This document shows, piece by piece, positions 15,310 through 59,369 of a stretch of 64,000 bases of DNA. The DNA comes from a virus. The number at the start of each line of letters is the position of its first letter. Within the stretch, counting starts at the first letter, position 1. The position numbers and the translations under genes were made by a program. The notes beneath the pieces are model-generated. The model did not search any database, had not been told where the DNA came from, and saw only the letters and a program-made list of their open reading frames with translations. Location: IMG/VR virus record IMGVR_UViG_3300022753_000060. The stretch is one strand, 5' to 3'.

Positions 15310-15448
15310 GCTCAATGAGTAAGTACCTTCACGCTGGTTGAGCTGTTTTAACCAAACTTACTCATTTTAAGTAACTTAGCTTTGGTAATGGTGCACCTAC
15401 TAAGTTACCAGAGCTATTTAACTTAATATTATTAAAGGAGAAGAAAAG

Positions 15449-28000: not shown

Positions 28001-28110
28001 GATTAAGAAGAGTTACAGGATATGTTTCTACAGATTATCATAATTTTAATGAAGGTAAGATAGCGGAAGTAGAAGATAGAGTCAAACACACAGGAGTTCC
28101 TATTGAATAA
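25015..28110 (+). CDS. nrdD: anaerobic ribonucleoside-triphosphate reductase (class III) with an in-frame intein-like insertion carrying a GIY-YIG domain
   Basis: N-terminal ATP-cone (IIKRDGSKQKFDEYKI); C-terminal Zn ribbon CMDCGH...CPECGS and glycyl-radical motif RRVTGYVS; RBS aaggagga. Confidence 0.85.
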   Translation: MQIIKRDGSKQKFDEYKIWKAILGCFEDCCPKGEYVNDGVITELTNKVTQQLDKRKNYTVEQIQDIVELTLMEANKYEQAKAYIEYRQLHKLARNSYTELMNKVKAKLEAKNVENSNANLDENTFSGREKEAFGTILKEYALNNLVSETTRNNHINNEIYIHDLDAYASGMHNCLSIPLDDLLAKGFKVKQTDIRPAGTVNTAMQLSAVIMQLQSLCQFGGVSYTHFDWSMVPYVRKSFYKHYKEGLYWFGNEKYLEGITKETSIIDEKYKLNQDAYEYAMRQTEKETHQAVEALYHNLNSLQSRSGQQLPFSSINYGTCTLPEGRMITEELLNVSIEGLGKYHRTSIFPCGIFQCMKGVNRKPGDPNYDLFKLALKSTSKRLYPNYASVDWSGNAGYDVNDPKTYFSTMGALSGHEHLTVKIGNEEPIDLSIRDLFDYCKTDDLQNYKKTQIWYNREKLNEEPLGRHYQEKSGLPNLPGVYSITYLPEDVTYIGSSSSISRRCAEHKCAIGKTGGIDAGINFGDIDTANYEFKVLEITEDYKEAENLYIQKNANINPRGTDKKYYKLITQKSRHRVYDRPVFKVDLSKKQELIDLSEFDIKVLDRDNKWVKIKHIFKNDKLNTPYMMHIYYKEYDKEYCLSCTEDHPLWTGDKFTRADQLKIGDKLYRADNLELEITDICWHWEAVDSYDIGTETGSFIGSDIIMHNCRTANGWDINGLKQQKDGRGNIAPTTIILPTIAMKSKECTRASEESDIDVFMRLLECKINEAKDSLIERFEHICSQSPKSAPFMYENNTMAGYIPEEGIRSALKHGTLVIGQLGLAECLQILIGKDHTTKEGMELAKKIEQLFKDKCAYFKEQYKLNFGVYYTPAESLCKTAMTKFKEKYGIIPNISDRKYFTNSMHVPVYHNINAFDKIDIESQLTGYSSAGCITYVELDSSSIHNIEAIEKLVNYAMDKDIPYFAINVPNDVCMDCGHQEEMNDKCPECGSDNIERLRRVTGYVSTDYHNFNEGKIAEVEDRVKHTGVPIE
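26248..27138 (+). other. intein-like (Hint) element within nrdD, class-2-like (Ala1, +1 Cys), carrying GIY-YIG endonuclease domain
   Basis: Starts ALSGHEHLTVKIGNEEPIDLSIRDLF (block A-like, Ala replacing Cys1). Contains GVYSITYLPEDVTYIGSS...RRCAEH (GIY-YIG). Ends ..GSDIIMHN followed by extein Cys (MG|...|CRTANGW). Confidence 0.55.
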
Positions 28111-28147: not shown

Positions 28148-28732
28148 ATGTTTATAGGGATAGGCTGTTTAGCCTATCTATCATCTCCTGATAAAATAGT
28201 GGGTGCTTTCTTATTTACTGTAGGATTATTTGTTATACTTACTTTTAAATTAAATTTATTCACAGGTAAGATTTGTTATGTTATAGAAAAGAAAAATTAT
28301 TTAGAAGTAGTTATAACTTTACTTGGTAATTTTATAGGAACATTATTACTAGCTTTAATGTGTAGAGCTACACGGTTAATTAATCTAATAGAGTATGCAA
28401 ATGCAATATGTGAAATCAAATTAAGTGATTCCTATATAAGTTTATTTATACTCGGAATTTTATGTAACATATTAATTTATATAGCGGTAGAAGGATACAA
28501 TAAGTTCAAAGATATAAGAGGTATTTTATCTCTTTTCTTTGGAGTTATTATCTTTGTAGTTATAGGATTAGAACACTGTATTGCAGACATGTTTTACTTT
28601 AATTTTACTTTTATATATTCTTGAGAGGTATTATTAAGATTATTAATTATAGTTTTAGGAAACGGTATAGGTGGAATAAGTATAAGATATTTATTTAGGA
28701 GACGTAATGAAATTTTTAAAGGAAGAGATTAA
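28148..28732 (+). CDS. multi-pass membrane protein; in-frame TGA at 28622-28624 followed by 35 more sense codons (extra TM helix)
   Basis: ORF 28148-28624 ends TGA; same frame continues ..FIYS[TGA]EVLLRLLIIVLGNGIGGISIRYLFRRRNEIFKGRD to TAA 28730-28732. Confidence 0.45.
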
Positions 28733-29279
28733 TAATTTATACCACGCATATCATGGATCTAATGCAGAATTCGACAGATTTGAGCAGCAATTCATTGGAG
28801 CTCATGCATTAGGGCATGGATTTGGCTTTTACTTTACAGACGAAATTAATCAAGCTAAAAGTTATGGTGATTATGTTATAGAAGCAGATTTATTAATTAG
28901 AAAACCATTTTCAGATGACAGTATAACTATAGCTAAAAATCAAGTTAAAAATTATATTAGAAAATATGTAGATCCTATTGGAAAAGATTATTTATCTAAC
29001 TATGGTTGGTATGAAGATGAAGGTTATGAAAATGTTTTAAATAATTGTGTAGAATCTTTATTTGCATATAACAATAGTGATAATGATATTATTAGTGAAA
29101 TATTGTTTAATGTACAAAATAAATATACTGATGAAGCTTATGATGCTATATTTGAAATATTTGGAAAAGATGGAATTATATATCAAGGCTTTTCTGGCTG
29201 GCAAGGCGAACCTTTAACAAATTATTTAGTTTATAGCAATTCACAAATATTAAATAAGAAAAAAATTAAGGTGAGATAA
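28707..29279 (+). CDS. hypothetical protein
   Basis: 190-aa ORF, RBS tttaggagacg. Confidence 0.45.
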   Translation: MKFLKEEINNLYHAYHGSNAEFDRFEQQFIGAHALGHGFGFYFTDEINQAKSYGDYVIEADLLIRKPFSDDSITIAKNQVKNYIRKYVDPIGKDYLSNYGWYEDEGYENVLNNCVESLFAYNNSDNDIISEILFNVQNKYTDEAYDAIFEIFGKDGIIYQGFSGWQGEPLTNYLVYSNSQILNKKKIKVR

Positions 29280-33141: not shown

Positions 33142-34230
33142 ATGTCTAATATAGATGAAGTAAGAACTCTAGCCAAATTAGTTGCTGATAAAATTAGAAA
33201 GGATAAATGTATGTTGAATATAAAAGAAATAATAAGTAAACCTGAGTATAGATGGCTAGAAGAATATAAAGATAGATTATGCTTCTTAGTTATATCAGGT
33301 TCTCATGGATATGGTACTAATGTAGAAGGTAGTGATATTGATATAAGAGGAGTTATGCTACCCACTAAAGATGAATTGATTGGGTTAAAAACTTTTAAAC
33401 AAAGAGAAGATTCGAGCACAGACACAACTATTTATGAGTTTAATCAATTTATCAAACTTGCTATGGCAAATAACCCAAATGTGATTGAAATGTTAGGTTT
33501 CAAACATTATCTTATATTTAATGAAATTGGGCATGACTTACTTGATAGTTTACCTTTATTATTAAGTAAAAAATGTTATCAAACATTTAATGGTTACGCA
33601 GTAGCGCAATTAAGAAAAATTGAAAATGCTTTAGCAAGTACTGAATATACTGAAGAAGAAAAAGTAAAACATATAAAGCAAACAATGGATGTTGCTATGA
33701 TGAAACTATCTGAATCAAACAAATTATTTGCAGACGGCTGTATAAATGTTACTGCAGATTTAGATAAACTTTATATTGACTGTAATATAAAACAAGCACC
33801 AATAGACCTAGTAAGAAGTTCTTTAAATGATATATTAACTATAGAAAAAAGTTATAATAAAATAAATCAAAGAAATACTAAACCAACTATGGAAAAATTG
33901 AATAAACATTGCATGCACTTATTTAGACTAATCATAACTTGTTGTGAGATACTAGAGAAAGGTGTATTAAATTCTTATAGAGAAGATGATAGGGATTTTC
34001 TATTGGATATCAGAAATGGTAAGTTTATAAAAGATGGTCATTTAACAGCAGAATTTACAAATACTTTAAATGGATTAAATAAAAGATTACAATTAGCAGA
34101 GAGACATTCTACATTGCAAAAAACACCTAATTATGATGAATTGAATAAATTTGTCACCGATGTAAACAGTAAAGTTATAACTGATACTGTATTAAAATAC
34201 AAAGAACCATTGGAGGAGATCATACTATAA
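33142..34230 (+). CDS. predicted nucleotidyltransferase (Pol-beta superfamily)
   Basis: ISGSHGYGTNVEGSDIDIRGV = GS-x(n)-DxD NTase motif; 362 aa. Confidence 0.5.
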   Translation: MSNIDEVRTLAKLVADKIRKDKCMLNIKEIISKPEYRWLEEYKDRLCFLVISGSHGYGTNVEGSDIDIRGVMLPTKDELIGLKTFKQREDSSTDTTIYEFNQFIKLAMANNPNVIEMLGFKHYLIFNEIGHDLLDSLPLLLSKKCYQTFNGYAVAQLRKIENALASTEYTEEEKVKHIKQTMDVAMMKLSESNKLFADGCINVTADLDKLYIDCNIKQAPIDLVRSSLNDILTIEKSYNKINQRNTKPTMEKLNKHCMHLFRLIITCCEILEKGVLNSYREDDRDFLLDIRNGKFIKDGHLTAEFTNTLNGLNKRLQLAERHSTLQKTPNYDELNKFVTDVNSKVITDTVLKYKEPLEEIIL

Positions 34231-34775
34231 TGAAAGTAGAAATTTTAAAACATCCAACCAAAGAAGATTGGAGATATGTTCGAAAATGTACGCTCAACAC
34301 GGTAGGTAAAACATCTACAAAAGATGCAACGGATGCTTGGAAAGTAAAATTACTTATGGCAGAACATTCACCTATAAGAGAATTATGGTTTGGTATTAAA
34401 ATGGAGATACCTTATTATGTATCAGTTCATCTTGTAAGACATCATATTGGGGTTAATCATTATGTGCAAACACAAAGAGATGATAGAACAAATGATGCAA
34501 CACCAAGAGCAGAAAAACCACAAGGTGCGATTGTATCTCATATTATGTCCATCAATGCACAAGAACTATTATTCTTGGCTCATAAAAGATTATGTAACCA
34601 AGCCTCACCTGAAACAAGAGATGTAGTAAAAGAAATCTGCAGACAAGTAATTGAGGTCAATCCAGAGTTCAAAGATTTACTTGTTCCACTTTGTGCATAT
34701 AGAGGAGGCGTGTGCACAGAATTTAATCCATGTGGTTATAATAAAAAATTTCAAAATAGAGGTACCGAAAAATAA
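34230..34775 (+). CDS. ThyX-like (flavin-dependent thymidylate synthase-like) protein
   Basis: VRHHIGVNHYVQTQRDDR resembles ThyX RHRxxxxxxxS-QR signature; short (181 aa). Tentative. Confidence 0.3.
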   Translation: MKVEILKHPTKEDWRYVRKCTLNTVGKTSTKDATDAWKVKLLMAEHSPIRELWFGIKMEIPYYVSVHLVRHHIGVNHYVQTQRDDRTNDATPRAEKPQGAIVSHIMSINAQELLFLAHKRLCNQASPETRDVVKEICRQVIEVNPEFKDLLVPLCAYRGGVCTEFNPCGYNKKFQNRGTEK

Positions 34776-34966
34776 TGGAGCAGAAGTTTTATGGGCAAGA
34801 GTGCTATTTCTGTGGAGGAGATTGTAAACATCAGATATTTGCAACTCCAGATGGTAGAATTTGTTGTAAAGAATGTGCAAATAAATTACAAAAAGGTGAG
34901 ATGAGTTTAGATCCTAATGTAATAATATTATCTAAAGATGAATATGAAATAAAAGATTTTGAGTAA
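34775..34966 (+). CDS. zinc-ribbon protein
   Basis: CYFCGGDC...CCKEC. Confidence 0.4.
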   Translation: MEQKFYGQECYFCGGDCKHQIFATPDGRICCKECANKLQKGEMSLDPNVIILSKDEYEIKDFE

Positions 34967-35037
34967 ACTAATGAAAAATAGTTTACTTTTCTTTTTCAAT
35001 AATATATAATATTTATAATTAAAGGAGGAAAATAAAT

Positions 35038-35232
35038 ATGTTTCATGATAATTATAAAGTATACCAAACAGGTTTTGGTGAATATGGGGTAGAGGTAGAG
35101 TTTTGGAATTTCATTAGTGAGAAAGTAGAAACTCTTAACTTTGATAAATTAAATGAAGAACATTTAAATAAATTGATTGATTTATTAACCAAACTTGATT
35201 TTGATGATAGAACACCAGATAAAGGAGAATAA
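35038..35232 (+). CDS. hypothetical small protein
   Basis: 64 aa; promoter motif and RBS aaaggagga upstream. Confidence 0.4.
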   Translation: MFHDNYKVYQTGFGEYGVEVEFWNFISEKVETLNFDKLNEEHLNKLIDLLTKLDFDDRTPDKGE

Positions 35233-35235
35233 TAT

Positions 35236-35796
35236 ATGAATTATGAATATAAAGATGAAAATATATATTTAAAATTGATAGAGGGTAATATCTATCGAGT
35301 AAAAGATAATAAAGATGTTAAATTAACAGAAGGCTATCATATACCTTATTTTACTTTTATAACAGAATTTGATGATAAATTATATTTTAAATATGATGAA
35401 AAATCATTTTATTATGATAAAAAATATAATATAATTTATTTTGAATCTAAAAATAAGTTTATCTATAAAATAAATGGTAAAGATGTATCAAAAGAACAAT
35501 TTGAAATTGAATTTCAAAAGCGGGTAGAAACTTATATACCTTACAGTGAATATTGGCCAAAGAAAGAAGATTTAAGAAAAAACTTGCAAGAGCGTAGGGA
35601 GATGTGGTTTCCAACCTATGATAAAAGATATAAAGATAAGTTAGTTATTATCGATAAAGATTACTTTATGGCATGCGAAGAAGAGATACTTGAAATTGCA
35701 AATCTTGTAGAAGAAAATGAATATGATCCAGAAGATAATGATTCACTTAGAATTGCTATTGCATTATGGAATGCAGGATATAGAAAAGGAGAGTAG
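35236..35796 (+). CDS. hypothetical protein
   Basis: 186-aa ORF. Confidence 0.45.
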   Translation: MNYEYKDENIYLKLIEGNIYRVKDNKDVKLTEGYHIPYFTFITEFDDKLYFKYDEKSFYYDKKYNIIYFESKNKFIYKINGKDVSKEQFEIEFQKRVETYIPYSEYWPKKEDLRKNLQERREMWFPTYDKRYKDKLVIIDKDYFMACEEEILEIANLVEENEYDPEDNDSLRIAIALWNAGYRKGE

Positions 35797-35797
35797 T

Positions 35798-36148
35798 ATG
35801 AAAAAGAAAGGAAGATGCTGTTTTTGCAATGTTGAATATGATAATTATGGAAATGACATAAGACCATTAATTACTACTTCTGGAGATAGATGTTGTGATA
35901 AATGCAATGTATTAATTGTAATTCCAAATAGAATTAAATTCTGGTTTACAGACATGTATATGTATGTTATTAAAAATAGAGATACAGGTGAATTTATAAA
36001 TGAGTATGGTTTAGGTACAAATTACACTAATATTGCAGATCCTACTGTATTAAAATTTAAAACAGAAGAAGATGCTCAACATCATATCGATATTGACCAA
36101 TTATTTAATTGTGAAATTGTTAGATTAATTGTAAGAGAGGACGATTAA
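35798..36148 (+). CDS. Cys-rich zinc-binding protein
   Basis: ORF track 35717, but ATG 35798 follows RBS aaaggagag; CCFCN...CCDKC. Confidence 0.4.
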   Translation: MKKKGRCCFCNVEYDNYGNDIRPLITTSGDRCCDKCNVLIVIPNRIKFWFTDMYMYVIKNRDTGEFINEYGLGTNYTNIADPTVLKFKTEEDAQHHIDIDQLFNCEIVRLIVREDD

Positions 36149-36149
36149 T

Positions 36150-37421
36150 ATGGAGATAAAATTACCAAAATATGTTGAATTACTAATAAACATGTTAAAT
36201 GAAAATGGTTATGCAGCATATGCAGTTGGTGGCGCTATTAGAGATTCTATATTAGGTATTGAACCAAAAGATTGGGATATAGCAACAAGTGCTTTACCTG
36301 CTGAAACAAAGAAACTATTTGAAGATAATAGTTTTCACAAGAGTGATATGGATATTTATTTTAAAGTTATTCCAACAGGAGAAAAATATGGCACTATGAC
36401 TATTGAAGTTATAGAAAAATATAAATTAAATAAATATGAACATCTTGCAGGTATTTATGAAATAACCACATTTAGATATGATAGCGATTACACTGATGGT
36501 AGAAGACCAAATAATGTAACTTTTGGTGAATCTATTATAGATGATTTAGATAGAAGAGATTTTACTATGAATGCTATTGCTTATAACCCATTAGTAGGTA
36601 TAGTAGACCCACATAATGGTGTTGAAGATATTAAAAATAAAATAGTTAAAGCAGTAGGAGACCCACAGGTTAGAATAAAAGAAGATGCTTTGAGAATTTT
36701 AAGGGGCATTAGATTTGCTTGTAAGTATAATTTTGAGTTAGAGAATGCAACAAGCAATGTTATAGCGGGTACTGGTAGTCTCTTAAAGAATGTATCAAAA
36801 GAAAGAATTACTGAAGAAGTTAAGAAGATATTAGAATATTCAAAAGGTAATTCTGAAACTTTAAATTCAACAATAGAAACACTAGCAGAGATATTTGAGA
36901 TACCTCAAAACAAAGTAAGTAAATGGGGTAGTAACCAGGTCATCATAGATATAGATAATGACAACCCACCTATGTTAAAGTTGTATTCAATATTGAATAA
37001 GTATAAGTCAATGATAGATGCAGAAATTTGGATGAGGTTATATAAATATAGTAACCAACAAATCAAAGAGGTTATTAGCTATTATAAGATGTCAAAGTTT
37101 ATGGAAGATGTTCAGCAACAAGATATTGTCCTAACAATCAAGCAACTATTCAATAAATTTGAACATGCATACGTATGCAAGTATTTGGGTATTTACACAA
37201 AAATAGAAGGAATAGATTTGTCAGAAATTACAAGTCAACCATATAGATTACAAGACTTGGCAATAGATGGGCACTTTCTTCAATCTACATTTGATATAAG
37301 TGGTGAGAAGATAGGTAAGGTTCTTAATTTCTTATTAGGCAAAGTTATGGAGAATTCCCAACTAAACACAATAGAAACTTTATCTGAAATTACAAGGAGA
37401 TACTTAAATGGAGAAAATTAA
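36150..37421 (+). CDS. cca: CCA-adding enzyme / tRNA nucleotidyltransferase (class II)
   Basis: AVGGAIRDSILG...DWDIAT (GGxxRD..DxD head), RRDFTMNAIAY; 423 aa. Confidence 0.7.
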   Translation: MEIKLPKYVELLINMLNENGYAAYAVGGAIRDSILGIEPKDWDIATSALPAETKKLFEDNSFHKSDMDIYFKVIPTGEKYGTMTIEVIEKYKLNKYEHLAGIYEITTFRYDSDYTDGRRPNNVTFGESIIDDLDRRDFTMNAIAYNPLVGIVDPHNGVEDIKNKIVKAVGDPQVRIKEDALRILRGIRFACKYNFELENATSNVIAGTGSLLKNVSKERITEEVKKILEYSKGNSETLNSTIETLAEIFEIPQNKVSKWGSNQVIIDIDNDNPPMLKLYSILNKYKSMIDAEIWMRLYKYSNQQIKEVISYYKMSKFMEDVQQQDIVLTIKQLFNKFEHAYVCKYLGIYTKIEGIDLSEITSQPYRLQDLAIDGHFLQSTFDISGEKIGKVLNFLLGKVMENSQLNTIETLSEITRRYLNGEN

Positions 37422-37818
37422 GATATATGCTGATGGTGCTTGTAGAGGAAATCAATTTGCAGAAAACATAGGTGGTTATGGGATAGTGCTTCAGTACCAA
37501 GATCAATATAAAGAACTAAAAAATGCTTTTCGAAATACAACTAATAATAAAATGGAAATTTTATCTGTGATAGAAGGGTTAAAAGCATTAAAAGTATATG
37601 ATATTCCTATTGAAGTATATTCAGATAGCCAATATGTAGTTAGTACAATTAATTTAAATTGGAATAAAAAAGCTAATTTAGATTTATGGGAAGAACTGTA
37701 TACATATATAAATAAATTTAAAGATATTAGATTCATAAAAGTAAAAGGACACTCAGATAATGAATTTAATAACAGGGCAGATAAATTAGCAAATGAAGCT
37801 ATGGATGCTTTAAAATAA
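37408..37818 (+). CDS. rnhA: ribonuclease H (type 1)
   Basis: IYADGACRGN, NNKMEILSVIEGL, VYSDSQYVV, KVKGHSDNEFNNRADKLA (D-E-D-D residues in order). Confidence 0.8.
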   Translation: MEKIKIYADGACRGNQFAENIGGYGIVLQYQDQYKELKNAFRNTTNNKMEILSVIEGLKALKVYDIPIEVYSDSQYVVSTINLNWNKKANLDLWEELYTYINKFKDIRFIKVKGHSDNEFNNRADKLANEAMDALK

Positions 37819-37831
37819 AAGGAGAGAACAA

Positions 37832-38389
37832 ATGATCTATAATAGCATTTATTTGAATAAAAAACATGAAAAAGTTTGTAAGGAATTCTATAAAAGGTTT
37901 GCTTACGGTGAACAATATTTAAGTTTGAATCATATTGGTGAAATAGAAGAGATGCCTAGAGATTATTATTGGCAAGAAAGAGAGGTATATAATATAATAT
38001 TACCTTATATAAATTTACTTAAAAATAAAGGGGTAAAGGATAAAGATTTATATGGCAGATATGGATTTGTATCTCTAGTATATAACCTACAAGTAGCTTA
38101 TAATAAAGTTAAAAATAATGCTTTAACAATTATAAATAGATATGCTTTCCCAACTGCTCTAATAGAAGATGGTTCAGTTGATATCGATAGCTTAGAAGAA
38201 GAGGGATTAGCTCCAGGGAAAATCTTAGTTTATAGACAAGGTGCTCAAAAACCAGATACTAGTCAGGATTTCTTAAAAACAGATATTTTATTTTCATTAT
38301 CTACTTATGAAGAGCACCTGGAAACTGAAATGCGTAAAATGTATGATTTATTCTTAGAAGGATGGTATAAAAACAATGAGAAAATATAA
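37832..38389 (+). CDS. hypothetical protein
   Basis: 185-aa ORF. Confidence 0.45.
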   Translation: MIYNSIYLNKKHEKVCKEFYKRFAYGEQYLSLNHIGEIEEMPRDYYWQEREVYNIILPYINLLKNKGVKDKDLYGRYGFVSLVYNLQVAYNKVKNNALTIINRYAFPTALIEDGSVDIDSLEEEGLAPGKILVYRQGAQKPDTSQDFLKTDILFSLSTYEEHLETEMRKMYDLFLEGWYKNNEKI

Positions 38390-39014
38390 TAAAATTGAAG
38401 CAATTTATGCAAGAGATGAAGAAACTAAAAAGACTATAGATAAATATAGAAACCCAACTATAGAATTTTTAAAAGATTTAACTTGGCAATTTACTGAAAA
38501 AGTGGATGGTACTAATGTTAGAGTTCATTGGGATGGTCATAAAGTAACGTTTGGTGGAAGAACAGATAATGCATCAATGCCTGCATTTTTAGTAAATAGA
38601 CTAAATGAATTATTCGGTGGTAATGCTAATGAAGAACTATTTGAACAAAAATTTGGTGAAATGGAAGTAACCTTATATGGTGAAGGATATGGACCTAAAA
38701 TTCAATCAGGTGGAGCTTATAGAAATGATGTAGATTTTATTTTATTTGATGTTCAAATAGGAGATAATTATCAACCAAGAGAATCTGTAGAAGATATAGC
38801 GAATTACTTTAAATTAGATATTGTACCTATTTTATTTGAAGGTCCATTAAGTAGAGGGATCAACTATGTTAAAACAGAAAGAAGAAGTGCTATAGCAAAG
38901 AATGGGCACTTGATTGAAGGACTTGTTGCAAGACCTAAATTTGAATTGAAAGATAGATGCGGGAATAGAATTATTGTTAAAATAAAATATGAAGATTTAA
39001 AGGATATATTATAA
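38376..39014 (+). CDS. ATP-dependent RNA ligase-like adenylyltransferase (Rnl2-like nucleotidyltransferase domain)
   Basis: Motif I EKVDGTNVRV (KxDG), III DFILFDV, IV HLIEGLVARP, V KIKYEDLK; 212 aa. Confidence 0.5.
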   Translation: MRKYNKIEAIYARDEETKKTIDKYRNPTIEFLKDLTWQFTEKVDGTNVRVHWDGHKVTFGGRTDNASMPAFLVNRLNELFGGNANEELFEQKFGEMEVTLYGEGYGPKIQSGGAYRNDVDFILFDVQIGDNYQPRESVEDIANYFKLDIVPILFEGPLSRGINYVKTERRSAIAKNGHLIEGLVARPKFELKDRCGNRIIVKIKYEDLKDIL

Positions 39015-39015
39015 T

Positions 39016-39225
39016 ATGAAACAGTTTATTAGAAATAAGACTTTTGAAACAAACTCAAGTTCTACTCATAGTTTAACTTTGGATAACCATAATAAAATAA
39101 CAGATCTACTATATGAAGCTATAAACAAAATTGAAAGTATAGATAGTATGGATGAAGTATATGCAATTCTTGGATTAATGAAACGAGCAGAACGTTTATT
39201 ACTAGATAATTTAGGAGATTATTAA
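39016..39225 (+). CDS. MKQxIR-TFETNSSSxHS family protein (short paralog 3)
   Basis: MKQFIRNKTFETNSSSTHSLTL; 69 aa. Confidence 0.5.
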   Translation: MKQFIRNKTFETNSSSTHSLTLDNHNKITDLLYEAINKIESIDSMDEVYAILGLMKRAERLLLDNLGDY

Positions 39226-39227
39226 AT

Positions 39228-40100
39228 ATGAAACAACTTATTAGAAATTCAACCTTTGAAACAAATAGCAGTTCAATGCATAGTTTAGTTATATCTAAGA
39301 AAGTTAAACCTTACTCAGTTAGTGATAAATCATTGCACTATTATGGCAATGATTTTGAACTATTTGGATGTTGTGATACTCATTCTTTTGGAAGAACACC
39401 TTTTGAAGTTTTATCTAGTCCAAAAGATAAACTAAGATATTATGTAGCACATTATGTAGGTTTCAAAAAAGAAAAAGAAAGGTTAAAAGAAGTTGAAGAT
39501 CTTGTTTATGAGCTTACAGGATGTTCTAGGGAGAAAATAAAATTATATTGTGAAGAAGAATACCCTTGGAAAAAGAAACCAGAAAAATCTTATGGATATG
39601 CTGGTATAAATGACACAGGCGAAGATGTATTTGATTATATTGAAAAGAATAATATATCTTTGAGAGAATTTATCCTTGACCCTAGGTACACTGTTATTGT
39701 AGATGGTGATGAATACCAAGAGTTTAAAAAATTATTTAAAAAAGGTATTATTGATTTAGATAATATAGATTATATATCTAGTGGTAAGCATTTTTGGATT
39801 GATGATATTAAAACATTTAGTCTATATTACATTAATAGATTTGTAAATGATGATGTTTATAATGAATTTATGGAAGAGATAGATAATTATAATAATGAAT
39901 TTATAAAATGTATTGAAATAGAAGATGAAGAGGATGTTGATATAAATCAATCAGCTATGATAACATTTGCATCAGTATTAGAATGTTTTAAGCATTTAAC
40001 TTATGGCAGAAATATACCAATCAAACTTATTCTTAAAACTCATTCACTAGATGATTTTAAACCAATATTAAAATATATAAGTTTAGAAGTTGATAATTAA
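39228..40100 (+). CDS. MKQxIR-TFETNSSSxHS family protein (paralog 4)
   Basis: MKQLIRNSTFETNSSSMHSLVI; 290 aa; intrinsic terminator (AGTTGATAATTAATTATCAACT + T-run) at 40088-40120. Confidence 0.6.
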   Translation: MKQLIRNSTFETNSSSMHSLVISKKVKPYSVSDKSLHYYGNDFELFGCCDTHSFGRTPFEVLSSPKDKLRYYVAHYVGFKKEKERLKEVEDLVYELTGCSREKIKLYCEEEYPWKKKPEKSYGYAGINDTGEDVFDYIEKNNISLREFILDPRYTVIVDGDEYQEFKKLFKKGIIDLDNIDYISSGKHFWIDDIKTFSLYYINRFVNDDVYNEFMEEIDNYNNEFIKCIEIEDEEDVDINQSAMITFASVLECFKHLTYGRNIPIKLILKTHSLDDFKPILKYISLEVDN

Positions 40101-40340
40101 TTATCAACTTTTTTATTTTTCTGTTAAAATTAGTTTACTTTTTAATCATAATCTTATATAATATTTATAATTAAAAGGAGTAGCTATGGTAGTAGTAAAA
40201 GAATCTTATAATATAAATAATGAATTAGAACTTAATATATGTTCTACTTTTCTGTATATTTTATATAAAGATAAGATAAACAAAGGTTTAGCAAATATCA
40301 CATTTGAAAATAATATTTTATATTACAGGGAGATTGTATA

Positions 40341-41510
40341 ATGAATAAAAAGTTAATATGTGTTACACCTAACAATAATAATAAGTTTTACAATATGACA
40401 GATCTCGGTGACGGTACTTTCGAAGTTGAATATGGAAGAGTTGGAGCTACAAGTGTAAAAACTTCTTACTCTATGTCTCAATGGGATAAAAAATACAATG
40501 AAAAAATAAAGAAAGGGTATGTTGATATAAGTGAATCTTTATCTCAAGACATTAAAAAAGCTTCTTTAAAGATAGATGATAAAGATGTTAAAGATTTAAT
40601 TTCATTTCTTATGAGTTGTGCAAAACAGTCTATCAAATCAAATTATGAAGTATCACTGGACTCAATTTCAGATATTCAAATAAATAAAGTCCAAGAAATA
40701 TTAGACGAGTTGAATGACTTGGATTTAACAAAATTACCTTATAATATTATAAATAACTATCTTCAAAAGGTGTATACAACTATACCAAGAAAAATGTATG
40801 ATACAAGAGCTTTTTTCTTAAAACCTAATTACACTAAACAAGAATTTATAGAATTATTACAAGAAGAACAAAATAAACTCAACACACTTAAATCACAAGT
40901 TAATTTGAATACCCAATCTAATAAAATTGAAGATATAACATTAGAAACACTTGGGTTTGATTGTAGATTAGCAACGCAAGAAGAAAGAGAATTTATAGCT
41001 GCCAATACTGATTTTAGAGTTAATAATCAAAAAATATTTAGAGTTACAAATCATGAAACTGAGAAAGTATTTAATCCAGATAATCTTAAAACAAGACTTT
41101 TATATCATGGAAGTAGAAATGAGAATTATCTAAGCATTATGCAAACAGGGTTAAAAATTAGACCTAAGGGTGTTGTCTTAACAGGTTCGATGTTTGGTAA
41201 TGGTATATATGCAGCTAATAAAGCAAGAAAAAGCATTGGTTATACATCATTAAGAGGTAGTTATTGGGCATCTGGCTCAAGTAATAAAGCTTATCTAACT
41301 ATATTTGAATTTGCTACAGGTCAAGAATGGCGAATTTTAGATAATGAAAGTTATAAATCTTGGATGGGCAGGATTACTGAAGATCAAGTTAAATCACAAA
41401 AATGTAATTCAGTATTTGCTAGAGGTGGTGCTGATTTAAGAAACGATGAATATATTGTATATAATAGTAATCAATGTACTATTAGATATATAATTGAAAT
41501 AAATAATTAA
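40341..41510 (+). CDS. PARP-like ADP-ribosyltransferase with WGR domain
   Basis: N-term DGTFEVEYGRVGATSVKTSY (WGR-like); catalytic LLYHGSRNENYLSIMQTGL...GSMFGNGIYAANKARKSIGY...DEYIVYNSNQCTIRYIIE (PARP H-Y-E signature). Confidence 0.6.
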   Translation: MNKKLICVTPNNNNKFYNMTDLGDGTFEVEYGRVGATSVKTSYSMSQWDKKYNEKIKKGYVDISESLSQDIKKASLKIDDKDVKDLISFLMSCAKQSIKSNYEVSLDSISDIQINKVQEILDELNDLDLTKLPYNIINNYLQKVYTTIPRKMYDTRAFFLKPNYTKQEFIELLQEEQNKLNTLKSQVNLNTQSNKIEDITLETLGFDCRLATQEEREFIAANTDFRVNNQKIFRVTNHETEKVFNPDNLKTRLLYHGSRNENYLSIMQTGLKIRPKGVVLTGSMFGNGIYAANKARKSIGYTSLRGSYWASGSSNKAYLTIFEFATGQEWRILDNESYKSWMGRITEDQVKSQKCNSVFARGGADLRNDEYIVYNSNQCTIRYIIEINN

Positions 41511-42640: not shown

Positions 42641-43375
42641 ATGTATGATTATGAAGATTATTATAGAGAACCATCAGAGATAGAAGATTTATTTAATGAG
42701 TATTCAGCAAAATTACAAACAATGTTAAAGAATGAGATTGTAAATAATGCTAAGAAATATGATGTAAATAAAGATGAAGTTAAAACTATGATGATGGTTG
42801 CGAATGGACTTAAAGAAGAGTATGAAAAGAAACTTGAAGATTTTGATAATGAAATAAGTAAAGCAGCCCAAGAACAACATAATAAATGGTTAGAGAAATT
42901 ACTCCACACTGATATTAAAGTTGGTGATACTGTTTATAAGATATATTCAAATGGGTATACTTATCTAACTTGTCCTTATTGTGAAAATGGAAAAGTTGCA
43001 GTCACTTTAGGTAATAGAATAGAATCTGTTGATTGTCCTATTTGTAAAAATTATAGACCATCTCTACCTAAATATGAGTATAAAAAAGTTAGAGTAAGAC
43101 AATTAAGTATGACTCTCACTTGTTCAGATAAGAATGAAAAAGCTACTCCTTATGTTGATAATTGGGTAGATACATCTAATTATCCTTTTAATAAATTCCA
43201 ATGTAATTGGTGCATTAGAGATGAGAATTGGGACACTTTAACATCTGATAGAACTGCAAAAACAGAAGAACAGGCAAAACTACTTATTACTCATATTAAA
43301 GAAGAAGCAATAAGTAAATTAGAAGAAAAATATGGTAAAGATAAAGTTCAAGATATGTTAAAGGAGATTGAATAA
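42641..43375 (+). CDS. zinc-finger protein
   Basis: CPYCENGK...CPICKN and CNWC motifs; 244 aa. Confidence 0.45.
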   Translation: MYDYEDYYREPSEIEDLFNEYSAKLQTMLKNEIVNNAKKYDVNKDEVKTMMMVANGLKEEYEKKLEDFDNEISKAAQEQHNKWLEKLLHTDIKVGDTVYKIYSNGYTYLTCPYCENGKVAVTLGNRIESVDCPICKNYRPSLPKYEYKKVRVRQLSMTLTCSDKNEKATPYVDNWVDTSNYPFNKFQCNWCIRDENWDTLTSDRTAKTEEQAKLLITHIKEEAISKLEEKYGKDKVQDMLKEIE

Positions 43376-44693
43376 AATGGTTTTAAAAGTATTTGAAGAA
43401 TTTGTAAATGAAATTAACTCTAGTAATTCTAGATTATATAAAGAAGCTGTGTTAGATAAATATAAAGAAAATGAATATGTAAAACAAATAGTTCATTTTA
43501 TATTCAACCCCTATATTGTCACAGGTATCTCAAAAAAGAAAATAGATAGAATTAAATCTTCATTTATAAGTAAAGAAGATATACCAGAAACTTATGATAT
43601 ATTTGACTTACTTAATTATGTTAAGTTGAATAACACTGGTTCAGATTCAACTTTAATTGAAGTCTTAAAATGTGCTATGTCTAATAAAGATTATTCTGAA
43701 CTTATATTTAAAATAGTTTCTAAAGATATTAAATTGGGTATTCAATCAACAACTATAAATAAAATTTGGGGTGATAATTTTATACCTTGCTTCGACGTGA
43801 TGTTAGCACAAAAATATTTTGACAATCCAGATAAACTTGTTCCAGAAGGGATTCAATTTATTTTGACTCCAAAGTTAGATGGTGTCAGATGTGTTTTAAT
43901 TAACGATGGTTTTTCAGGTGCAAAATTCTTTTCCAGACAAGGTCAGTTAATAGAGCAATTGATAGAACTTGAAGAAGAAGCAAAACAGTTACCTATGGGT
44001 TATGTATATGATGGTGAACTACTGTTAGATAACAAAGATAATTTAGAGAGTAAAGATTTATATAGGGCAACTGTAAAAGTTACTAGTGCAGATAAAGAAA
44101 AAACTAATCTTATATTCAATGTTTTTGACATGATTCCAATTACAGATTTTCAAAATGGTTATTGTAATGCGCCTGCATCTTTAAGAAAAGAGCAATTATT
44201 AAAACAATTTACTTTTATGAAATTACCTCATATAGTTGACGTTCCTATCTTATATTATGGTGATGATAAACAGGTTATTACTGAACAATTAGATATTATA
44301 ACAGCTGCTGGAGGTGAGGGTGTCATGATTAATATTGCAGATGCCCCTTATGAATGTAAAAGAAGCAAAGGCTTACTTAAAGTTAAGAAAATGCAAACCT
44401 GCGATGTTAAAGTTGTTGGTATGGAAGAAGGTACAGGAAAAAATAAAGGTAAACTTGGAGCATTAAAGATTGAATTTATTGGTCCTGATGGGTTTACTTA
44501 TCAAAATGATGTAGGTTCGGGTTTGACTGATGAGGATAGAGAGTATTATTGGGATAACCCAGATAAAATTTTAAATAAAATAATTGAAATACAATATTTT
44601 GAAATATCAGCCAATCAACAAGGTACTTTTGGATTAAGGTTTCCTGTATTCAAGTGGATAAGAGAAGATAAGACTGATATATCAATGTATTAA
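43368..44693 (+). CDS. ATP-dependent DNA ligase
   Basis: Motif I TPKLDGVRCV, III YVYDGELL, IV EGVMIN, V LLKVKK; 441 aa. Confidence 0.75.
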   Translation: MNKMVLKVFEEFVNEINSSNSRLYKEAVLDKYKENEYVKQIVHFIFNPYIVTGISKKKIDRIKSSFISKEDIPETYDIFDLLNYVKLNNTGSDSTLIEVLKCAMSNKDYSELIFKIVSKDIKLGIQSTTINKIWGDNFIPCFDVMLAQKYFDNPDKLVPEGIQFILTPKLDGVRCVLINDGFSGAKFFSRQGQLIEQLIELEEEAKQLPMGYVYDGELLLDNKDNLESKDLYRATVKVTSADKEKTNLIFNVFDMIPITDFQNGYCNAPASLRKEQLLKQFTFMKLPHIVDVPILYYGDDKQVITEQLDIITAAGGEGVMINIADAPYECKRSKGLLKVKKMQTCDVKVVGMEEGTGKNKGKLGALKIEFIGPDGFTYQNDVGSGLTDEDREYYWDNPDKILNKIIEIQYFEISANQQGTFGLRFPVFKWIREDKTDISMY

Positions 44694-51914: not shown

Positions 51915-52395
51915 ATGTGTTAAATGCGGAAATGAAATTTTAACAGGAGATATCCATTGGGAAATGGGCTTATGTAACAACTGTTATAATGAATTATATA
52001 AAGACCATAAAACTCATATTAGTTTGGATAATATGTGGTTGAAACTTGCTCAAGATTTTAGAGATGAGAACGAAAAATTGCAAGACAAGGTAACCGACCT
52101 AGAAGCAAAACTAGTATTGAAATCTTCATTTAGTAAGTTTACATTATCTGACGAGTTATATAAATTATATATAAATTTGGAAAGAGAATATACAAAATCA
52201 AGCCAAGAAATTGCTGAGAGAGGTAAAGAAATTGAAAAATTAAGAGTTATGTTAGATACCTCTTTAACAAAACTCCATAAAGCAAGGAGGAAAATAAATA
52301 GAGTATTATTGAAAATAGCTAAATTTGAAGCCGAATTAGATAATTATACTATACAAAATGAAACTTTCTTAAAGAGAGGCAATCAGCATGAATAA
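51907..52395 (+). CDS. coiled-coil protein with N-terminal zinc ribbon
   Basis: CVKCGN...CNNC then heptad-rich sequence. Confidence 0.4.
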   Translation: MSKCVKCGNEILTGDIHWEMGLCNNCYNELYKDHKTHISLDNMWLKLAQDFRDENEKLQDKVTDLEAKLVLKSSFSKFTLSDELYKLYINLEREYTKSSQEIAERGKEIEKLRVMLDTSLTKLHKARRKINRVLLKIAKFEAELDNYTIQNETFLKRGNQHE

Positions 52396-53368
52396 AGATA
52401 TAAAAATAATAGGATTAGACATAGCAGAAGATAGGTTACCTAAACTGGTTGTGATGTGTGGTTTGCAAGGTTCCGGTAAATCAACTATTGCAGAAGAATT
52501 GAGTTTGAAATATAACATGATTGTATTATCTAGTGATAAATTAAGAAAAGAATTTCCAGATGAGAACAATGAATTTATTTTTAGACGCTTATATAATCAA
52601 GCAAATATAGCTTTGAAACAAGGATTAAATGTTATCCTAGATGCAACTAATATTACAATTAAATCTAGAAAACAAATATTTTTAAATATAAAAGAACCTT
52701 GTAAAAAGATTTGTTACATAGTAAACACGCCTTATGAAGTATGTATAGAAAGAGTTAAAAAAAGAAATGAAGATATAAATTCTCATCAAGTTCCATTAGA
52801 AGTGGTTAGAAGATATTTAGAATCTTTTGAAGTACCTTTTTATGAAGAAGGATGGGACAACATATTACTGTATAATATTATAGGGCATAATGAGTCTGTA
52901 GAAAATTTTAATAATATGATGAAATCTGCATTTGGATTTGACCAACATAATAAACATCATACTCAATTATTACATGAACATTTAGAATCGGTTGCTAATC
53001 AATTATATGATATAGATAATGTTTTATATGAAGCAGGATTATTACATGATATAGGCAAACTTGATACGCAGACATATAAAGAAAATGACCCTAATGCACA
53101 TTACTATAATCATGCCAATGTTGGTGCTTATAAAGTATTATGTAATTATATGTCTTGGTATATGATAGAACAATTAGGAGAAGATTATCCTAAATATGAT
53201 ACTACATTAGATATAGTATTTTACATAAATTATCATATGCATATGTATAATATTAAAACTGAAAAATCTGAAAGGAAGTGGAGACAAGTATTTGGGGATA
53301 TAAAATTTAATAATTTAAAATTGTTAAATGAAGCTGACCAATTTAATCATAGTAAGGAGATAAAATAA
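52388..53368 (+). CDS. polynucleotide kinase-like P-loop kinase fused to HD phosphohydrolase domain (RNA end-healing enzyme candidate)
   Basis: Walker A MCGLQGSGKST (cf. T4 Pnk GxPGSGKST), D-x-T later; C-terminal HD motif LLHDIGK and H..H pairs. Confidence 0.55.
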   Translation: MNKDIKIIGLDIAEDRLPKLVVMCGLQGSGKSTIAEELSLKYNMIVLSSDKLRKEFPDENNEFIFRRLYNQANIALKQGLNVILDATNITIKSRKQIFLNIKEPCKKICYIVNTPYEVCIERVKKRNEDINSHQVPLEVVRRYLESFEVPFYEEGWDNILLYNIIGHNESVENFNNMMKSAFGFDQHNKHHTQLLHEHLESVANQLYDIDNVLYEAGLLHDIGKLDTQTYKENDPNAHYYNHANVGAYKVLCNYMSWYMIEQLGEDYPKYDTTLDIVFYINYHMHMYNIKTEKSERKWRQVFGDIKFNNLKLLNEADQFNHSKEIK

Positions 53369-54408: not shown

Positions 54409-54963
54409 ATGAATCAAAAAATTAGAAATAATACATTCGAAACAAATAGTTCATCTATTCATAGCTTAGCAATTTGCAAAACGGATAAAACAGATACCCA
54501 GTTTGAATTATTAGCTTCAGAATATGAAGTAAATATTCCATTGGAAAATTTTGATTATGATATGATACTAGATGAGCCTTATGATATATTATCATATTTA
54601 TATAGTTACTCGGTAGTATCTAAATATTGGAAGCTATATGATCTAATTATCAAAACTTTTCCAAATTGCATTTTTGAAAAACCTAGATATGATTTGCCTT
54701 GGAATAGTAAAAAAGGTTATTGTAATGATAGATCTATAATAAGTTTTTGTGATGTTATAAATTGTCATATGGCACCATTATTAGAAAAAAATGCGCAAGA
54801 ATATATTTTAGATCATCTTGCAAAAGTTGTTTTTTCAAGTAAAATATGTATAATGAGAGATCTAAATTTTGGTAATTATATAGATGAAAGAGATGATATA
54901 ATTGACAAAGAAAAATATAAAAAAGAAAATTTTGAAATAATATTTGATGAAGAAGAATTTTAA
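54409..54963 (+). CDS. MKQxIR-TFETNSSSxHS family protein (paralog 6)
   Basis: MNQKIRNNTFETNSSSIHSLAI; 184 aa. Confidence 0.6.
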   Translation: MNQKIRNNTFETNSSSIHSLAICKTDKTDTQFELLASEYEVNIPLENFDYDMILDEPYDILSYLYSYSVVSKYWKLYDLIIKTFPNCIFEKPRYDLPWNSKKGYCNDRSIISFCDVINCHMAPLLEKNAQEYILDHLAKVVFSSKICIMRDLNFGNYIDERDDIIDKEKYKKENFEIIFDEEEF

Positions 54964-57899: not shown

Positions 57900-59369
57900 A
57901 TGAATGCAATAGCTAGAATATATGGTAATAGTAAACATCCAGATATAAGTGGAGAAGTTAAATTTACCCAGTTGGACGATAAAGTAAAAATTACAGCTGA
58001 TATAAAAGGATTACCAAAATCAACTTTCTTAGGATTTCATATACATGCTAAAGGTAATTGCTCAGGAGATGAGCAAGATGAATTTAAAGATGTAGGTAAG
58101 CATTACAATCCAGATAGAAAAAGACATCCAAATCATAAAGGTGATTTATCTTCTATAAATACATCAACCGGAAAAGTTCATATAGAACAAGAAACAGATA
58201 GATTTACAGTCGATGAAATCATTGGAAAAGCAATTATATTGCATTCACAGAGAGATGATTTTACAAGTCAACCAGCAGGTGATGCTGGAGATAAGATAGC
58301 ATGTGGAGTGATAAGAGAAATGAAATTATTAGAAAATGAATCAAAAAATCCTTTAAAAGATGCAGAAGAATTTGCTAAAAAGCATCAAAAAGGATTAGGA
58401 GCATTTGTTAAGTTGAACGCTGGTAATGTAGAAAAAGGGATAGCAACATTTAATAAAAATATGGGATCTAGTGAAACAAGTACATCTAGCACAGCTATGA
58501 GTGAAAGCATAGAATATAAAGGAATTGAATTAACTTCAAATAATAAAGAAGAATCAAAAGAAGATATAATAGATAATTTATCAGGCATTGTTGATGATAT
58601 AGTAAGGGCTGGTTATTTTAACTATTCTGATATAATTAGAGTAGAAGAAGTTATAGATGAAAAAACCTTTGATAACTCGCATTTAATTATAACAACGAAA
58701 GATGAAGGACCTAAATTATTTACATATGTTGGTGGTAGGCTGTACAACTACGAACCAAGAGAATATATTAATAGGGGAGTTGAATCAAAGATGAATATCA
58801 GAGAAGAATTAAATAAGATTGATATGGATACTTGCGAAACCGATTTAGTTAATATGTATGAAGCTTGTAAGTTAACAAATGAGGATAAAAAACAAATAGT
58901 CGCATTGTTGCAAGAAAATAAAGTAGAAGATCTAAATAAATTTTTAGAATCTAAATTATTTGAAGATGAACTTGATCCTGAAACATTAGATGAAAATGAT
59001 TATTCTGAAGAAGATTTAAAAATGTTTGCTAATATGATTAGAGTAAATAGTCCGCGTTTTAGAGGTGATCCATATCCTCCATTCGCAGAAACAAAGATAA
59101 ATGAATCTAATATCCCAGATAATATGAGATTTAAAATGTGGGATAGTGAAGTTACAAGTGATGATGTTATCGAATTTACTTGGATAACTCAAGGAGAGTT
59201 TACAACTGAAGATTCAGAAATGTTTATAAAAGAAATAAAAAGAGCTATTAATGCTTTAATAGACAGTTCTAGATTCGATCAACCATTTACTCTTGCCCTA
59301 GAAGTAAGATCAAGATCAGGATATGAAAATGGGCATTTAGTGATAGATTTAGATTTTAACCGAGAATAA
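57900..59369 (+). CDS. Cu/Zn superoxide dismutase-like domain protein with ~330-aa C-terminal extension
   Basis: GFHIHAKGNC, GKHYNP, HKGDL, ILHSQRDDF, GDAGDKIACGVI = Cu,Zn-SOD motifs in canonical order (aa 40-170). Confidence 0.55.
   Translation: MNAIARIYGNSKHPDISGEVKFTQLDDKVKITADIKGLPKSTFLGFHIHAKGNCSGDEQDEFKDVGKHYNPDRKRHPNHKGDLSSINTSTGKVHIEQETDRFTVDEIIGKAIILHSQRDDFTSQPAGDAGDKIACGVIREMKLLENESKNPLKDAEEFAKKHQKGLGAFVKLNAGNVEKGIATFNKNMGSSETSTSSTAMSESIEYKGIELTSNNKEESKEDIIDNLSGIVDDIVRAGYFNYSDIIRVEEVIDEKTFDNSHLIITTKDEGPKLFTYVGGRLYNYEPREYINRGVESKMNIREELNKIDMDTCETDLVNMYEACKLTNEDKKQIVALLQENKVEDLNKFLESKLFEDELDPETLDENDYSEEDLKMFANMIRVNSPRFRGDPYPPFAETKINESNIPDNMRFKMWDSEVTSDDVIEFTWITQGEFTTEDSEMFIKEIKRAINALIDSSRFDQPFTLALEVRSRSGYENGHLVIDLDFNRE

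Follow-up and report, generated by a model that had tools for sequence, protein, structure and literature searches.

A PARP-like ADP-ribosyltransferase with a predicted WGR–helical–ART module in the replication and repair region of an uncultured phage

What does a poly(ADP-ribose) polymerase (PARP)-type enzyme do in a phage? PARP signalling is usually regarded as eukaryotic. Bacterial and viral PARPs have been interpreted both as products of horizontal transfer and as possible forerunners of the eukaryotic enzymes, and to our knowledge a biological role is known for none of them. The locus considered here lies in a stretch of 64,000 nucleotides of viral DNA (IMG/VR record IMGVR_UViG_3300022753_000060), which is called the window throughout. 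An original prediction, made from the sequence, had assigned its open reading frame (ORF) 40341..41510 on the + strand to a PARP-like ADP-ribosyltransferase (ART) that combines a WGR domain with an H-Y-E catalytic domain. Profile searches, an invariant triad, the predicted structure and a fold search bear out this assignment. The gene represents an intact PARP1/2/3-type module, kept under selection inside the phage replication, recombination and repair region, a short distance upstream of an ATP-dependent DNA ligase. Our preferred interpretation, to which we give an even chance, is a DNA-break-gated, NAD+-consuming ART that would work with phage DNA repair and replication.

Domain architecture and predicted fold

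The ORF runs from ATG to stop, encodes 389 aa and has exactly the boundaries originally given. Sequence and predicted structure point to a genuine PARP-family ART with a module of three domains, located as follows.

40341..41510, + strand: putative PARP-family ADP-ribosyltransferase gene of the WGR–helical–ART type (ORF, Pfam, PHROG, AlphaFold2, Foldseek)
40344..40532, + strand: predicted WGR domain, 'YGR' variant, residues ~2-64 (near-cutoff Pfam match, invariant columns, profile alignment)
40581..40952, + strand: predicted helical (HD/PARP_reg-like) domain, residues ~81-204 (profile of alignment A1, DSSP, fold matches)
40956..41504, + strand: predicted ART catalytic domain, residues ~206-388 (invariant residues, triad alignment to PARP2)
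41106-41108, 41208-41210 and 41448-41450, + strand: catalytic codons of H256, Y290 and E370, respectively (alignment A1 and alignment to PARP2)

Alignment A1 comprises 35 homologs of 48-98% identity. The Pfam check proposed for the catalytic domain gave a clear match to PF00644 at residues 225-388 (E=3.8e-24, 85.7 bits, cutoff 26.7). PHROG 23333 covers the protein end to end (E=6.9e-51), and the best sequence matches in the PDB are catalytic fragments of human PARP2 and PARP1 (E~2e-14). The peptides LLYHGSRNENYL (residues 253-264), GSMFGNGIYAANKARKS (residues 282-298) and DEYIVYNSNQCTIRYIIE (residues 369-386) agree with the PARP signature to a degree that is far beyond chance. In the alignment to PARP2 the triad falls into the pairs LLYHGSR/LLWHGSR (H), GNGIYAAN/GKGIYFAD (Y) and NDEYIVYN/YNEYIVYN (E). 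H256, Y290 and E370, the last being the catalytic Glu already named in the original prediction, are invariant in A1, and the protein does not fall into another ART clade lacking this triad. In the nicotinamide-site K-S-x-x-Y motif, K297 and Y301 are likewise invariant, S298 nearly so.

The WGR segment FEVEYGRVGA occupies residues 27-36 of the translation. Pfam alone leaves PF05406 just under its cutoff (residues 11-64, E=3.2e-4, 21.2 bits, cutoff 22), but the domain is present by profile alignment and by fold: the A1 profile aligns NNNK[FY]Y...[WY]GRVG to the WGR domain of PARP2, and a fold match is found in addition. The WGR residues N12, N14, K15, Y17, G32, R33, G35, K55, K58, G59 and Y60 are invariant in A1. 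The close clade has Tyr at position 31, where more distant homologs have Trp; this is the 'YGR' variant. García-Saura et al. 2018 (PMC5966428) reported three co-evolving WGR patches and the Tyr-for-Trp substitution in bacterial PARPs, and the three conserved patches of the phage protein match those patches.

WGR and catalytic domain were both expected; a third, helical domain between them had been overlooked. In the AlphaFold2 model built on A1 (predicted local distance difference test, pLDDT, 86.7; predicted template modelling score, pTM, 0.79), DSSP delimits a beta-rich N-terminal domain with one helix (residues 2-62), an all-helical block (81-204) and an alpha/beta C-terminal domain (206-388). 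The top Foldseek matches in the PDB are WGR–HD–ART chains of PARP2 and PARP1 on DNA double-strand breaks (6x0l_P, E=4.7e-20, TMq 0.63; 4dqy_C, TMq 0.65; 462-477 alignment columns). Against PARP2 the A1 profile aligns in three collinear pieces (E=3e-25), which correspond to WGR, to HD plus ART (residues 74-333) and to the strand with the catalytic Glu. The Pfam PARP_reg model gives no match in the ORF. Model and profile alignment together indicate a helical regulatory domain at residues ~81-204, which matters for the mechanism because it implies autoinhibition. ART fold, H-Y-E triad, N-terminal WGR and helical domain, the features of the DNA-dependent PARP1/2/3-like subgroup, are all found in the phage protein.

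Comparison with a relative of 98% identity (locus L001) revealed 54 synonymous and 7 nonsynonymous differences, and the ratio of nonsynonymous to synonymous changes (pN/pS) is 0.031. The gene is under strong purifying selection, and judged by its sequence it very likely encodes an active PARP-family ART. PARP-fold pseudoenzymes exist in eukaryotes, and one may think of an inert relic or of a structural or DNA-binding protein; nothing specific speaks for either. With all catalytic and NAD+-site residues invariant across 48-98% identity, the low pN/pS and a uniform family length of ~390-420 aa, we regard such a protein as extremely unlikely.

The phage PARP shares the C-terminal WGR–HD–ART module, the H-Y-E triad and the motifs NNNK[FY]Y and [WY]GRVG with human PARP1/2/3. 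In contrast to these it is only ~20% identical, lacks zinc fingers, a BRCT domain and an N-terminal tail, and carries Tyr for the Trp of W-G-R. Furthermore, its ART is shorter (residues 333-361) and has an insertion after S-x-x-Y, and there is neither an HPF1-like partner nor a chromatin context. An H-Y-E triad is required for polymer formation but does not guarantee it: PARP3 and PARP4 possess one and are nevertheless mono-ARTs, and the PDB entry name for PARP4 is 'mono-ADP-ribosyltransferase'. Hence, a mono- or poly-ADP-ribose product is not readable from the sequence.

Relatives in phages and bacteria

The order WGR(YGR)–helical–ART is shared with bacterial Clade 1 PARPs (PMC5966428), in which Pfam sees WGR and PARP_cat and not PARP_reg, and models show the helical domain. 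These enzymes come from Cytophagales and Clostridiales and are uncharacterised (PMC5966428). The phage PARP appears to match Clade 1, a placement made by taxon overlap and domain pattern and not by a joint tree. HaPARP of Herpetosiphon aurantiacus and CdPARP of C. difficile CD160 are Clade 2 enzymes with a canonical PARP_reg (PMC5966428). Unlike the bacterial PARPs, which are chromosomal, the present copy is viral. Bacterial and phage PARPs had been called functionally uncharacterised. In the literature searched this holds for phage PARPs and for the present subfamily, but the Herpetosiphon and C. difficile CD160 PARPs have been characterised in vitro (PMC8120803, PMC5966428).

The expected rarity holds for cultured phages only. 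A PARP homolog was detectable in 16 out of 50,697 deposited phage genomes, with a full-length identity of at most 34%; two partial C-terminal matches reach 36-40%. These homologs belong to Cellulophaga phi4:1-like phages, the Xanthomonas phages XacN1 and Xoo-sp13, Stenotrophomonas and Klebsiella phages, and two 'huge phage' metagenomic genomes. For several of them, 'poly(ADP-ribose) polymerase' is the existing annotation. The annotated proteins (phi4:1, XacN1/Xoo-sp13, Klebsiella 05F01; Aeh1) are full-length homologs that cover 97-99% of the query and likewise belong to PHROG 23333, but they are only 24-34% identical and stem from unrelated lineages with Gram-negative hosts. The label of PHROG 23333 and the RefSeq product name (NC_021788, NC_021798) read just 'polymerase', evidently a truncated 'poly(ADP-ribose) polymerase', which could mislead automated annotation towards a nucleic-acid polymerase.

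Metagenomes, in contrast, hold thousands of homologs. We found 4,947 clusters of metagenomic proteins (90% identity) at E<=1e-5 and 467 representatives (50% identity) at E<=1e-30; among the best 150 of these 467, nearly all are 380-430 aa long and align over their full length. In IMG/VR, a PARP homolog is present on at least 185 confirmed viral contigs. Species-representative genomes contributed 74 cellular PARP loci, some of them on Treponema contigs of metagenome-assembled genomes. The cellular homologs are 34-49% identical and belong mostly to Cytophagales (Spirosoma, Larkinella, Fibrisoma, Microscilla) and Saprospiraceae, fewer to Clostridia.

PARPs of phages have been noted before. Aeh1 and Cellulophaga phi4:1 were listed by Perina et al. 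2014 (PMC4245714), jumbo phages by Iyer et al. 2021 (PMC7824862), and the same group counted PARP among the most frequent viral ART families in 2022 (PMC9503650). The present protein is a new divergent member of an already catalogued class, which amounts to a correct annotation and not to a discovery; the only unusual feature of this copy is that no eraser of the modification lies adjacent to it. Our analysis adds the recognition of the helical domain, the size of the metagenomic family, the recurrent ligase and replication neighbourhood, and a TARG1–PARP operon in other phages.

Gene neighbourhood and possible function

The PARP gene is surrounded by the following genes and ORFs.

33142..39014, + strand: upstream nucleic-acid repair block (Pfam)
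33142-34230, + strand: RlaP nucleotidyltransferase (PF10127)
36150-37421, + strand: CCA-adding enzyme (PF01743)
37408-37818, + strand: RNase H (PF00075)
38376-39014, + strand: RNA ligase (PF09414)
39228..40100, + strand: 290-aa neighbour of no assigned family (ORF), at the position where many other phage PARP loci have a TARG1 macrodomain
40186..40341, + strand: 51-aa ORF of doubtful coding status, with a stop overlapping the PARP start (TAATG)
43368..44693, + strand: ATP-dependent DNA ligase (PF01068 and PF14743), 1.9 kb downstream of PARP
52388-53368: P-loop kinase–HD fusion, Pnkp-like (Pfam)

RlaP, a ThyX-like fragment, the CCA-adding enzyme, RNase H, the RNA ligase, a 69-aa ORF, the 290-aa ORF and PARP follow each other in the same direction. 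Downstream of PARP come a small membrane protein, an ASCH-like protein, a 244-aa unknown protein and the DNA ligase. RlaP, CCA-adding enzyme and RNase H are also located upstream of PARP in the related loci L001, L157, L158 and L159, the latter two genes in swapped order in L157. All four clade members whose sequence extends that far have a ligase 0.4-1.9 kb downstream of PARP. The block of RlaP/CCA/RNase H, a ~300-aa protein, PARP and ligase recurs at 62-98% PARP identity on contigs of 142-150 kb. In a near-identical genome, RecA, clamp-loader subunits and a Mre11/Rad50-like pair are encoded just upstream of the window.

Neighbouring genes were also compared over a wider range of loci. ORFs were called and clustered in 154 related loci, representatives were checked with Pfam, and genes within 6 kb were counted for the 79 IMG/VR loci with a PARP ORF. 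A DNA ligase was present in 36 of the 79 loci (17 ATP-type, 19 NAD-type), a DnaE-like polymerase in 34, an ERCC4 nuclease in 21 and an ADP-ribosylglycohydrolase in 7. A macrodomain gene was found in 42 loci, in 39 of these less than 300 nt upstream and on the same strand. This PARP-adjacent macrodomain is a TARG1/OARD1 homolog (E=5e-26 to human TARG1; e.g. L072:1763-2200; also L102), and the TARG1–PARP pair is a compact eraser–writer operon not described in the papers covered. Lineages were collapsed at PARP identity thresholds of 60-90%. At 70% identity 26 viral lineages remained, 9 with a ligase and 4 with a macrodomain. PARP is found repeatedly near ligase and replication genes, in several lineages and with ligases of two unrelated cofactor types; the TARG1–PARP operon clusters in a small number of lineages, of which one is very populous. 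With single linkage at 50% or 40% identity, nearly all PARPs merged into one cluster, which was uninformative.

Among the cellular loci, those of Cytophagales (L098-L150; Spirosoma, Larkinella, Fibrisoma) have a neighbourhood of their own. A conserved 108-aa ORF immediately follows PARP in 36 out of 68 loci, often together with an ORF that has a pPIWI_RE_Z domain, and a WYL–WCX regulator is encoded nearby (e.g. L124:7167-7493, L135:7560-8012, L124:4196-5263). Such an arrangement resembles a conflict or damage-response island, with the reservation that the genomes are close relatives and the counts not independent.

In PARP1/2, the helical domain unfolds when the WGR domain binds a DNA break, and the NAD+ site becomes accessible. 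Activation of the Herpetosiphon PARP depends on DNA, and poly(ADP-ribose) is made by both of the characterised bacterial enzymes and reversed by their PARGs (PMC8120803). Given the switch of PARP1/2 and the DNA requirement of the Herpetosiphon enzyme, the phage PARP would most likely be switched on by DNA nicks or ends; on this analogy, we hold DNA-gated activation to be fairly probable. In the mechanism that we propose, the WGR domain would act as sensor of nucleic-acid breaks, and the helical domain would block the NAD+ site until WGR engages a DNA break, as in eukaryotic PARPs. The trigger would be a nick or break in DNA that is being replicated or is damaged, either phage DNA cut by host nucleases or Okazaki and packaging intermediates. 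Host NAD+ would then be used to ADP-ribosylate PARP itself and/or nearby proteins with mono- or poly-ADP-ribose. The mark may flag the break and coordinate end processing and ligation, the latter by the nearby ligase, and would represent a minimal viral PARP break-signalling step. Its removal would be the task of a TARG1/DarG-type macrodomain, for which the present genome type offers a distant candidate only. A role in phage DNA repair or replication rather than in manipulation of the host is suggested by the gene context and is put forward tentatively, at somewhat less than even chances.

The minimal WGR–helical–ART PARP constitutes a large and well-conserved family common to big phages and a few bacterial orders. 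It is repeatedly encoded together with DNA ligases, polymerases and nucleases and, in many phages, in an operon with a TARG1 eraser, which leads to concrete hypotheses, namely break-gated activation, ligase coupling and reversal by TARG1. With 389 aa the enzyme is an attractive minimal model of the allosteric WGR→HD→ART switch, and cultured phages with homologs exist in which such hypotheses could be tested.

Several observations weigh against a break-gated repair function. The first group concerns the eraser. Macrodomain and ARH cluster profiles gave no match in the six-frame translation of the window, Macro, PARG and ARH were absent from the 61 window ORFs scanned with Pfam, and no eraser was found within ±10 kb of PARP in four clade relatives. 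A writer-plus-eraser system is therefore not present in the region searched, with ~70 kb of the genome lying outside this region. One weak candidate, a 151-aa ORF at L161:1986-2441 without a Pfam match, adjoins RecA and an HD-domain protein. In the near-identical genome this position is ~7 kb before the start of the window and ~47 kb upstream of PARP. The candidate matches a macro profile (E=4.8e-4), a PARP-adjacent phage TARG1 (1e-4) and, via the motifs GxMGxGIA and PxxGCGxGGLDW, the PDB chain 5m3i_A (E=5e-5). This chain was deposited as 'RNase III inhibitor', and we take it to be the DarG macrodomain of M. tuberculosis. Probably a TARG1/DarG-type hydrolase exists in the present genome type; it could be the eraser of PARP or, equally, an anti-DarT counter-defence.

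A second group concerns the enzyme and its context. Between the beta-strand ending at ~333 and the strand of the catalytic Glu, the ART has ~28 residues compared to ~50 in PARP1/2, and a family-specific conserved insertion, TSLRGSYWASG (residues 302-312), follows the S-x-x-Y motif. Thus, substrate and chain-forming properties may differ from those of PARP1/2. Location in the repair region may reflect merely a shared early or middle expression. Relatedness among the loci inflates the neighbour counts, and after collapsing at 60% identity a ligase was found in 5 and a macrodomain in 2 out of 22 lineages. In the literature searched, an experimental study of any phage PARP or of a member of the present subfamily was not found, and the only function suggested for phage PARPs is the modification of host proteins (PMC7824862).

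As a host-takeover enzyme in line with this suggestion, PARP would modify host RNA polymerase, translation or repair factors with ADP-ribose or poly-ADP-ribose and so redirect the cell, with a purpose like that of T4 Alt/ModA/ModB, and WGR would merely localise the enzyme to DNA. The grouping of PART/PARP with viral ARTs that modify macromolecules (PMC9503650) points in the same direction, and a second ART (ART-PolyVal, 28707-29279) in this phage may indicate that ADP-ribosylation is a general strategy. However, ~44% of phage ARTs occur in head-packaging contexts (PMC9503650), whereas the present PARP is not located near head or packaging genes, has no MuF or polyvalent fusion and has nucleic-acid repair enzymes as conserved neighbours. 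It also retains the WGR and autoinhibitory helical module, which would be needless in a constitutive host modifier. The T4 enzymes are likewise phage-encoded NAD+-dependent proteins of the ART fold, but they belong to the R-S-E clade, act as mono-ARTs on host targets, lack WGR and helical domains, are often packaged in the head and show no homology beyond the ART fold. With an H-Y-E triad and repair and replication genes instead of head genes as neighbours, the present protein is not of the Alt/Mod type. We consider host takeover unlikely.

The 39 tight macrodomain–PARP pairs among the 79 loci resemble ART/macrodomain toxin-antitoxin pairs (DarTG and sirtuin-Macro analogies, PMC9503650). They raise the possibility of a conflict module, in which PARP would be a damage-triggered NAD+ sink or toxin, serving, for example, superinfection exclusion or countering NAD+/ADP-ribose-based host immunity, with the adjacent TARG1 as antidote. 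The WYL regulator and pPIWI_RE_Z gene beside Cytophagales PARPs, both typical of conflict islands, fit this idea, but come from closely related genera. PARP matched no PADLOC-DB family at E<=1e-3 and is not among the known anti-phage defence components. No antidote is adjacent in the present clade, and the phage would deplete NAD+ that it needs, though its own ligase is ATP-dependent. The similarity to DarT–DarG and TARG1 consists in the TARG1-type macrodomain operon of many phage relatives and the DarG-like candidate in the present genome type. In contrast, DarT itself is a small and different ART of the H-Y-E clade, sequence-specific for thymidine in single-stranded DNA, whereas the present protein is a true PARP with no adjacent eraser in the window. 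We rate a conflict module as improbable.

The type of the linked erasers suggests one further variant. TARG1 and DarG are both known to act on ADP-ribosylated DNA, and in two publications PARP1-3 are reported to attach ADP-ribose to DNA ends in vitro and TARG1 to undo the ADP-ribosylation of DNA (PMC8053099, PMC8501950). The phage PARP might accordingly modify terminal phosphates at DNA or RNA breaks, which would cap the ends against host exonucleases or hold them for ligases, with a TARG1-type enzyme uncapping them. Its gene is located between an RNA ligase and a DNA ligase, both acting on 5'-phosphate ends. But the argument is purely analogical, and the sequence has no feature that separates nucleic-acid from protein acceptors, which leaves such end modification a slim chance.

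Apart from break-gated ADP-ribosylation in repair, the 290-aa protein directly upstream deserves attention. An ORF of 290-300 aa holds this position in L001, L157, L158, L159 and L160, and in L001, the sole locus directly compared, its pN/pS is 0.13. The protein has 320 homologs with the invariant motifs FETNSSSMHS, NDxGE and DGDE; no Pfam, PHROG or PADLOC match and no fold assignment was obtained. It is conceivable, as a long shot, that PARP and the 290-aa protein form a two-gene unit in which the latter is a new ADP-ribose-removing or -processing enzyme, or a substrate or partner, and PARP caps DNA or RNA ends and so steers the flanking RNA and DNA ligases. If true, the unit would be a viral nucleic-acid ADP-ribosylation repair switch and not a protein-modification system.

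Five paralogous ORFs (2741-3106, 3121-3525, 39016-39225, 39228-40100 and 54409-54963), the 290-aa ORF being one of them, share the N-terminal motif MKQxIRxxTFETNSSSxHS and diverge in the bodies that follow it. Although 27 homologs keep the motif invariant, it is predicted to be disordered, and for this group neither a database family nor a fold match was found. The motif might be a shared leader or processing signal, similar to T4 internal proteins, or a catalytic N-terminus.

The 51-aa ORF overlapping the PARP start was considered a possible partner. It occurs in the window, L001, L002 and L160, that is, only in the closest relatives; L157 and L158 have an AT-rich spacer of 62-73 nt instead. 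As it is absent at 62-68% identity and has no family match, it is probably not a partner. A TTTACT-N17-TATAAT element precedes PARP in the window and in L158, a hint that PARP heads its own transcription unit. In the promoter and terminator scan, promoter-like sites were not enriched (120 vs 105±9 in shuffles) and no terminator was found on the + strand.

The phage genome and further observations

The 290-aa protein is 100% identical to a protein on the JGI metagenome scaffold 3300018878|Ga0187910_10000182 (154,272 bp). Gene order agrees, and the window corresponds to ~27.6-91.6 kb of this scaffold. Identical copies of window proteins are found on dozens of contigs of 50-200 kb from many samples. 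The window stems from a common uncultured phage type, a group of ~142-154 kb. It is AT-rich (26-29% GC outside the tRNA cluster), with practically all long ORFs encoded on the + strand. A near-identity DNA search (megablast) against cultured phages gave no match. Among cultured phages, large Bacillus/Geobacillus siphoviruses (141-169 kb) come closest in the DNA ligase and a DUF2828 protein (~40% identity); these siphoviruses were not among the PARP matches in deposited phage genomes. From these markers and the PARP-less relatives we infer a low-GC Firmicute host and PARP as an accessory gene of the clade.

The window contains 17 tRNA genes according to ARAGORN and 19 according to Rfam. RlaP, the CCA-adding enzyme, the RNA ligase and the kinase–HD fusion, together with the tRNA cluster, make up a full RNA-repair toolkit consistent with a defence against host anticodon nucleases.

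Two genes had been placed near PARP, a ferritin-like and a superoxide dismutase (SOD)-like gene. No ferritin-like family was found among the 61 window ORFs scanned with Pfam. The Cu/Zn-SOD domain is real (57900..59369, + strand; PF00080, E=1.4e-31, residues 16-138), but the gene starts 16.4 kb downstream of the PARP stop with no sign of linkage. The domain is fused to an acidic C-terminal extension of ~350 aa without a family match, which is an unusual SodC architecture; membrane proteins are encoded after this gene.

Other features concern nucleotide metabolism and mobile elements. NrdD, the anaerobic ribonucleotide reductase (25015-28110, + strand, 1031 aa), contains by eye a GIY-YIG-like insert and an intein-like C...HNC block and thus probably an intein or homing endonuclease. 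A NUMOD3-motif ORF (19570-20025) likewise suggests homing endonucleases. Adjoining nrdD, a 158-aa ORF (28148-28624, + strand) matches the formate/nitrite transporter PF01226 (E=1.3e-24) over only part of the profile, which makes it a truncated or split transporter-like gene. The ART-PolyVal gene mentioned above (+ strand; PF18760, E=4.4e-11; phrog_31411), which is unrelated to PARP and encodes a free-standing protein of 190 aa, lies between nrdD and the nrdD activase gene; its third catalytic position looks, by eye, like N-Y and not E-Y.

Among the tRNA genes, a 97-nt tRNA at 15215-15311 has the anticodon UCA ('tRNA-SeC' in ARAGORN) and is a possible UGA suppressor, which would hint at stop-codon recoding elsewhere in the genome. 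Two Rfam tRNA matches missed by ARAGORN are unusually long (7995-8113, 119 nt, and 8316-8449, 134 nt) and may contain introns.

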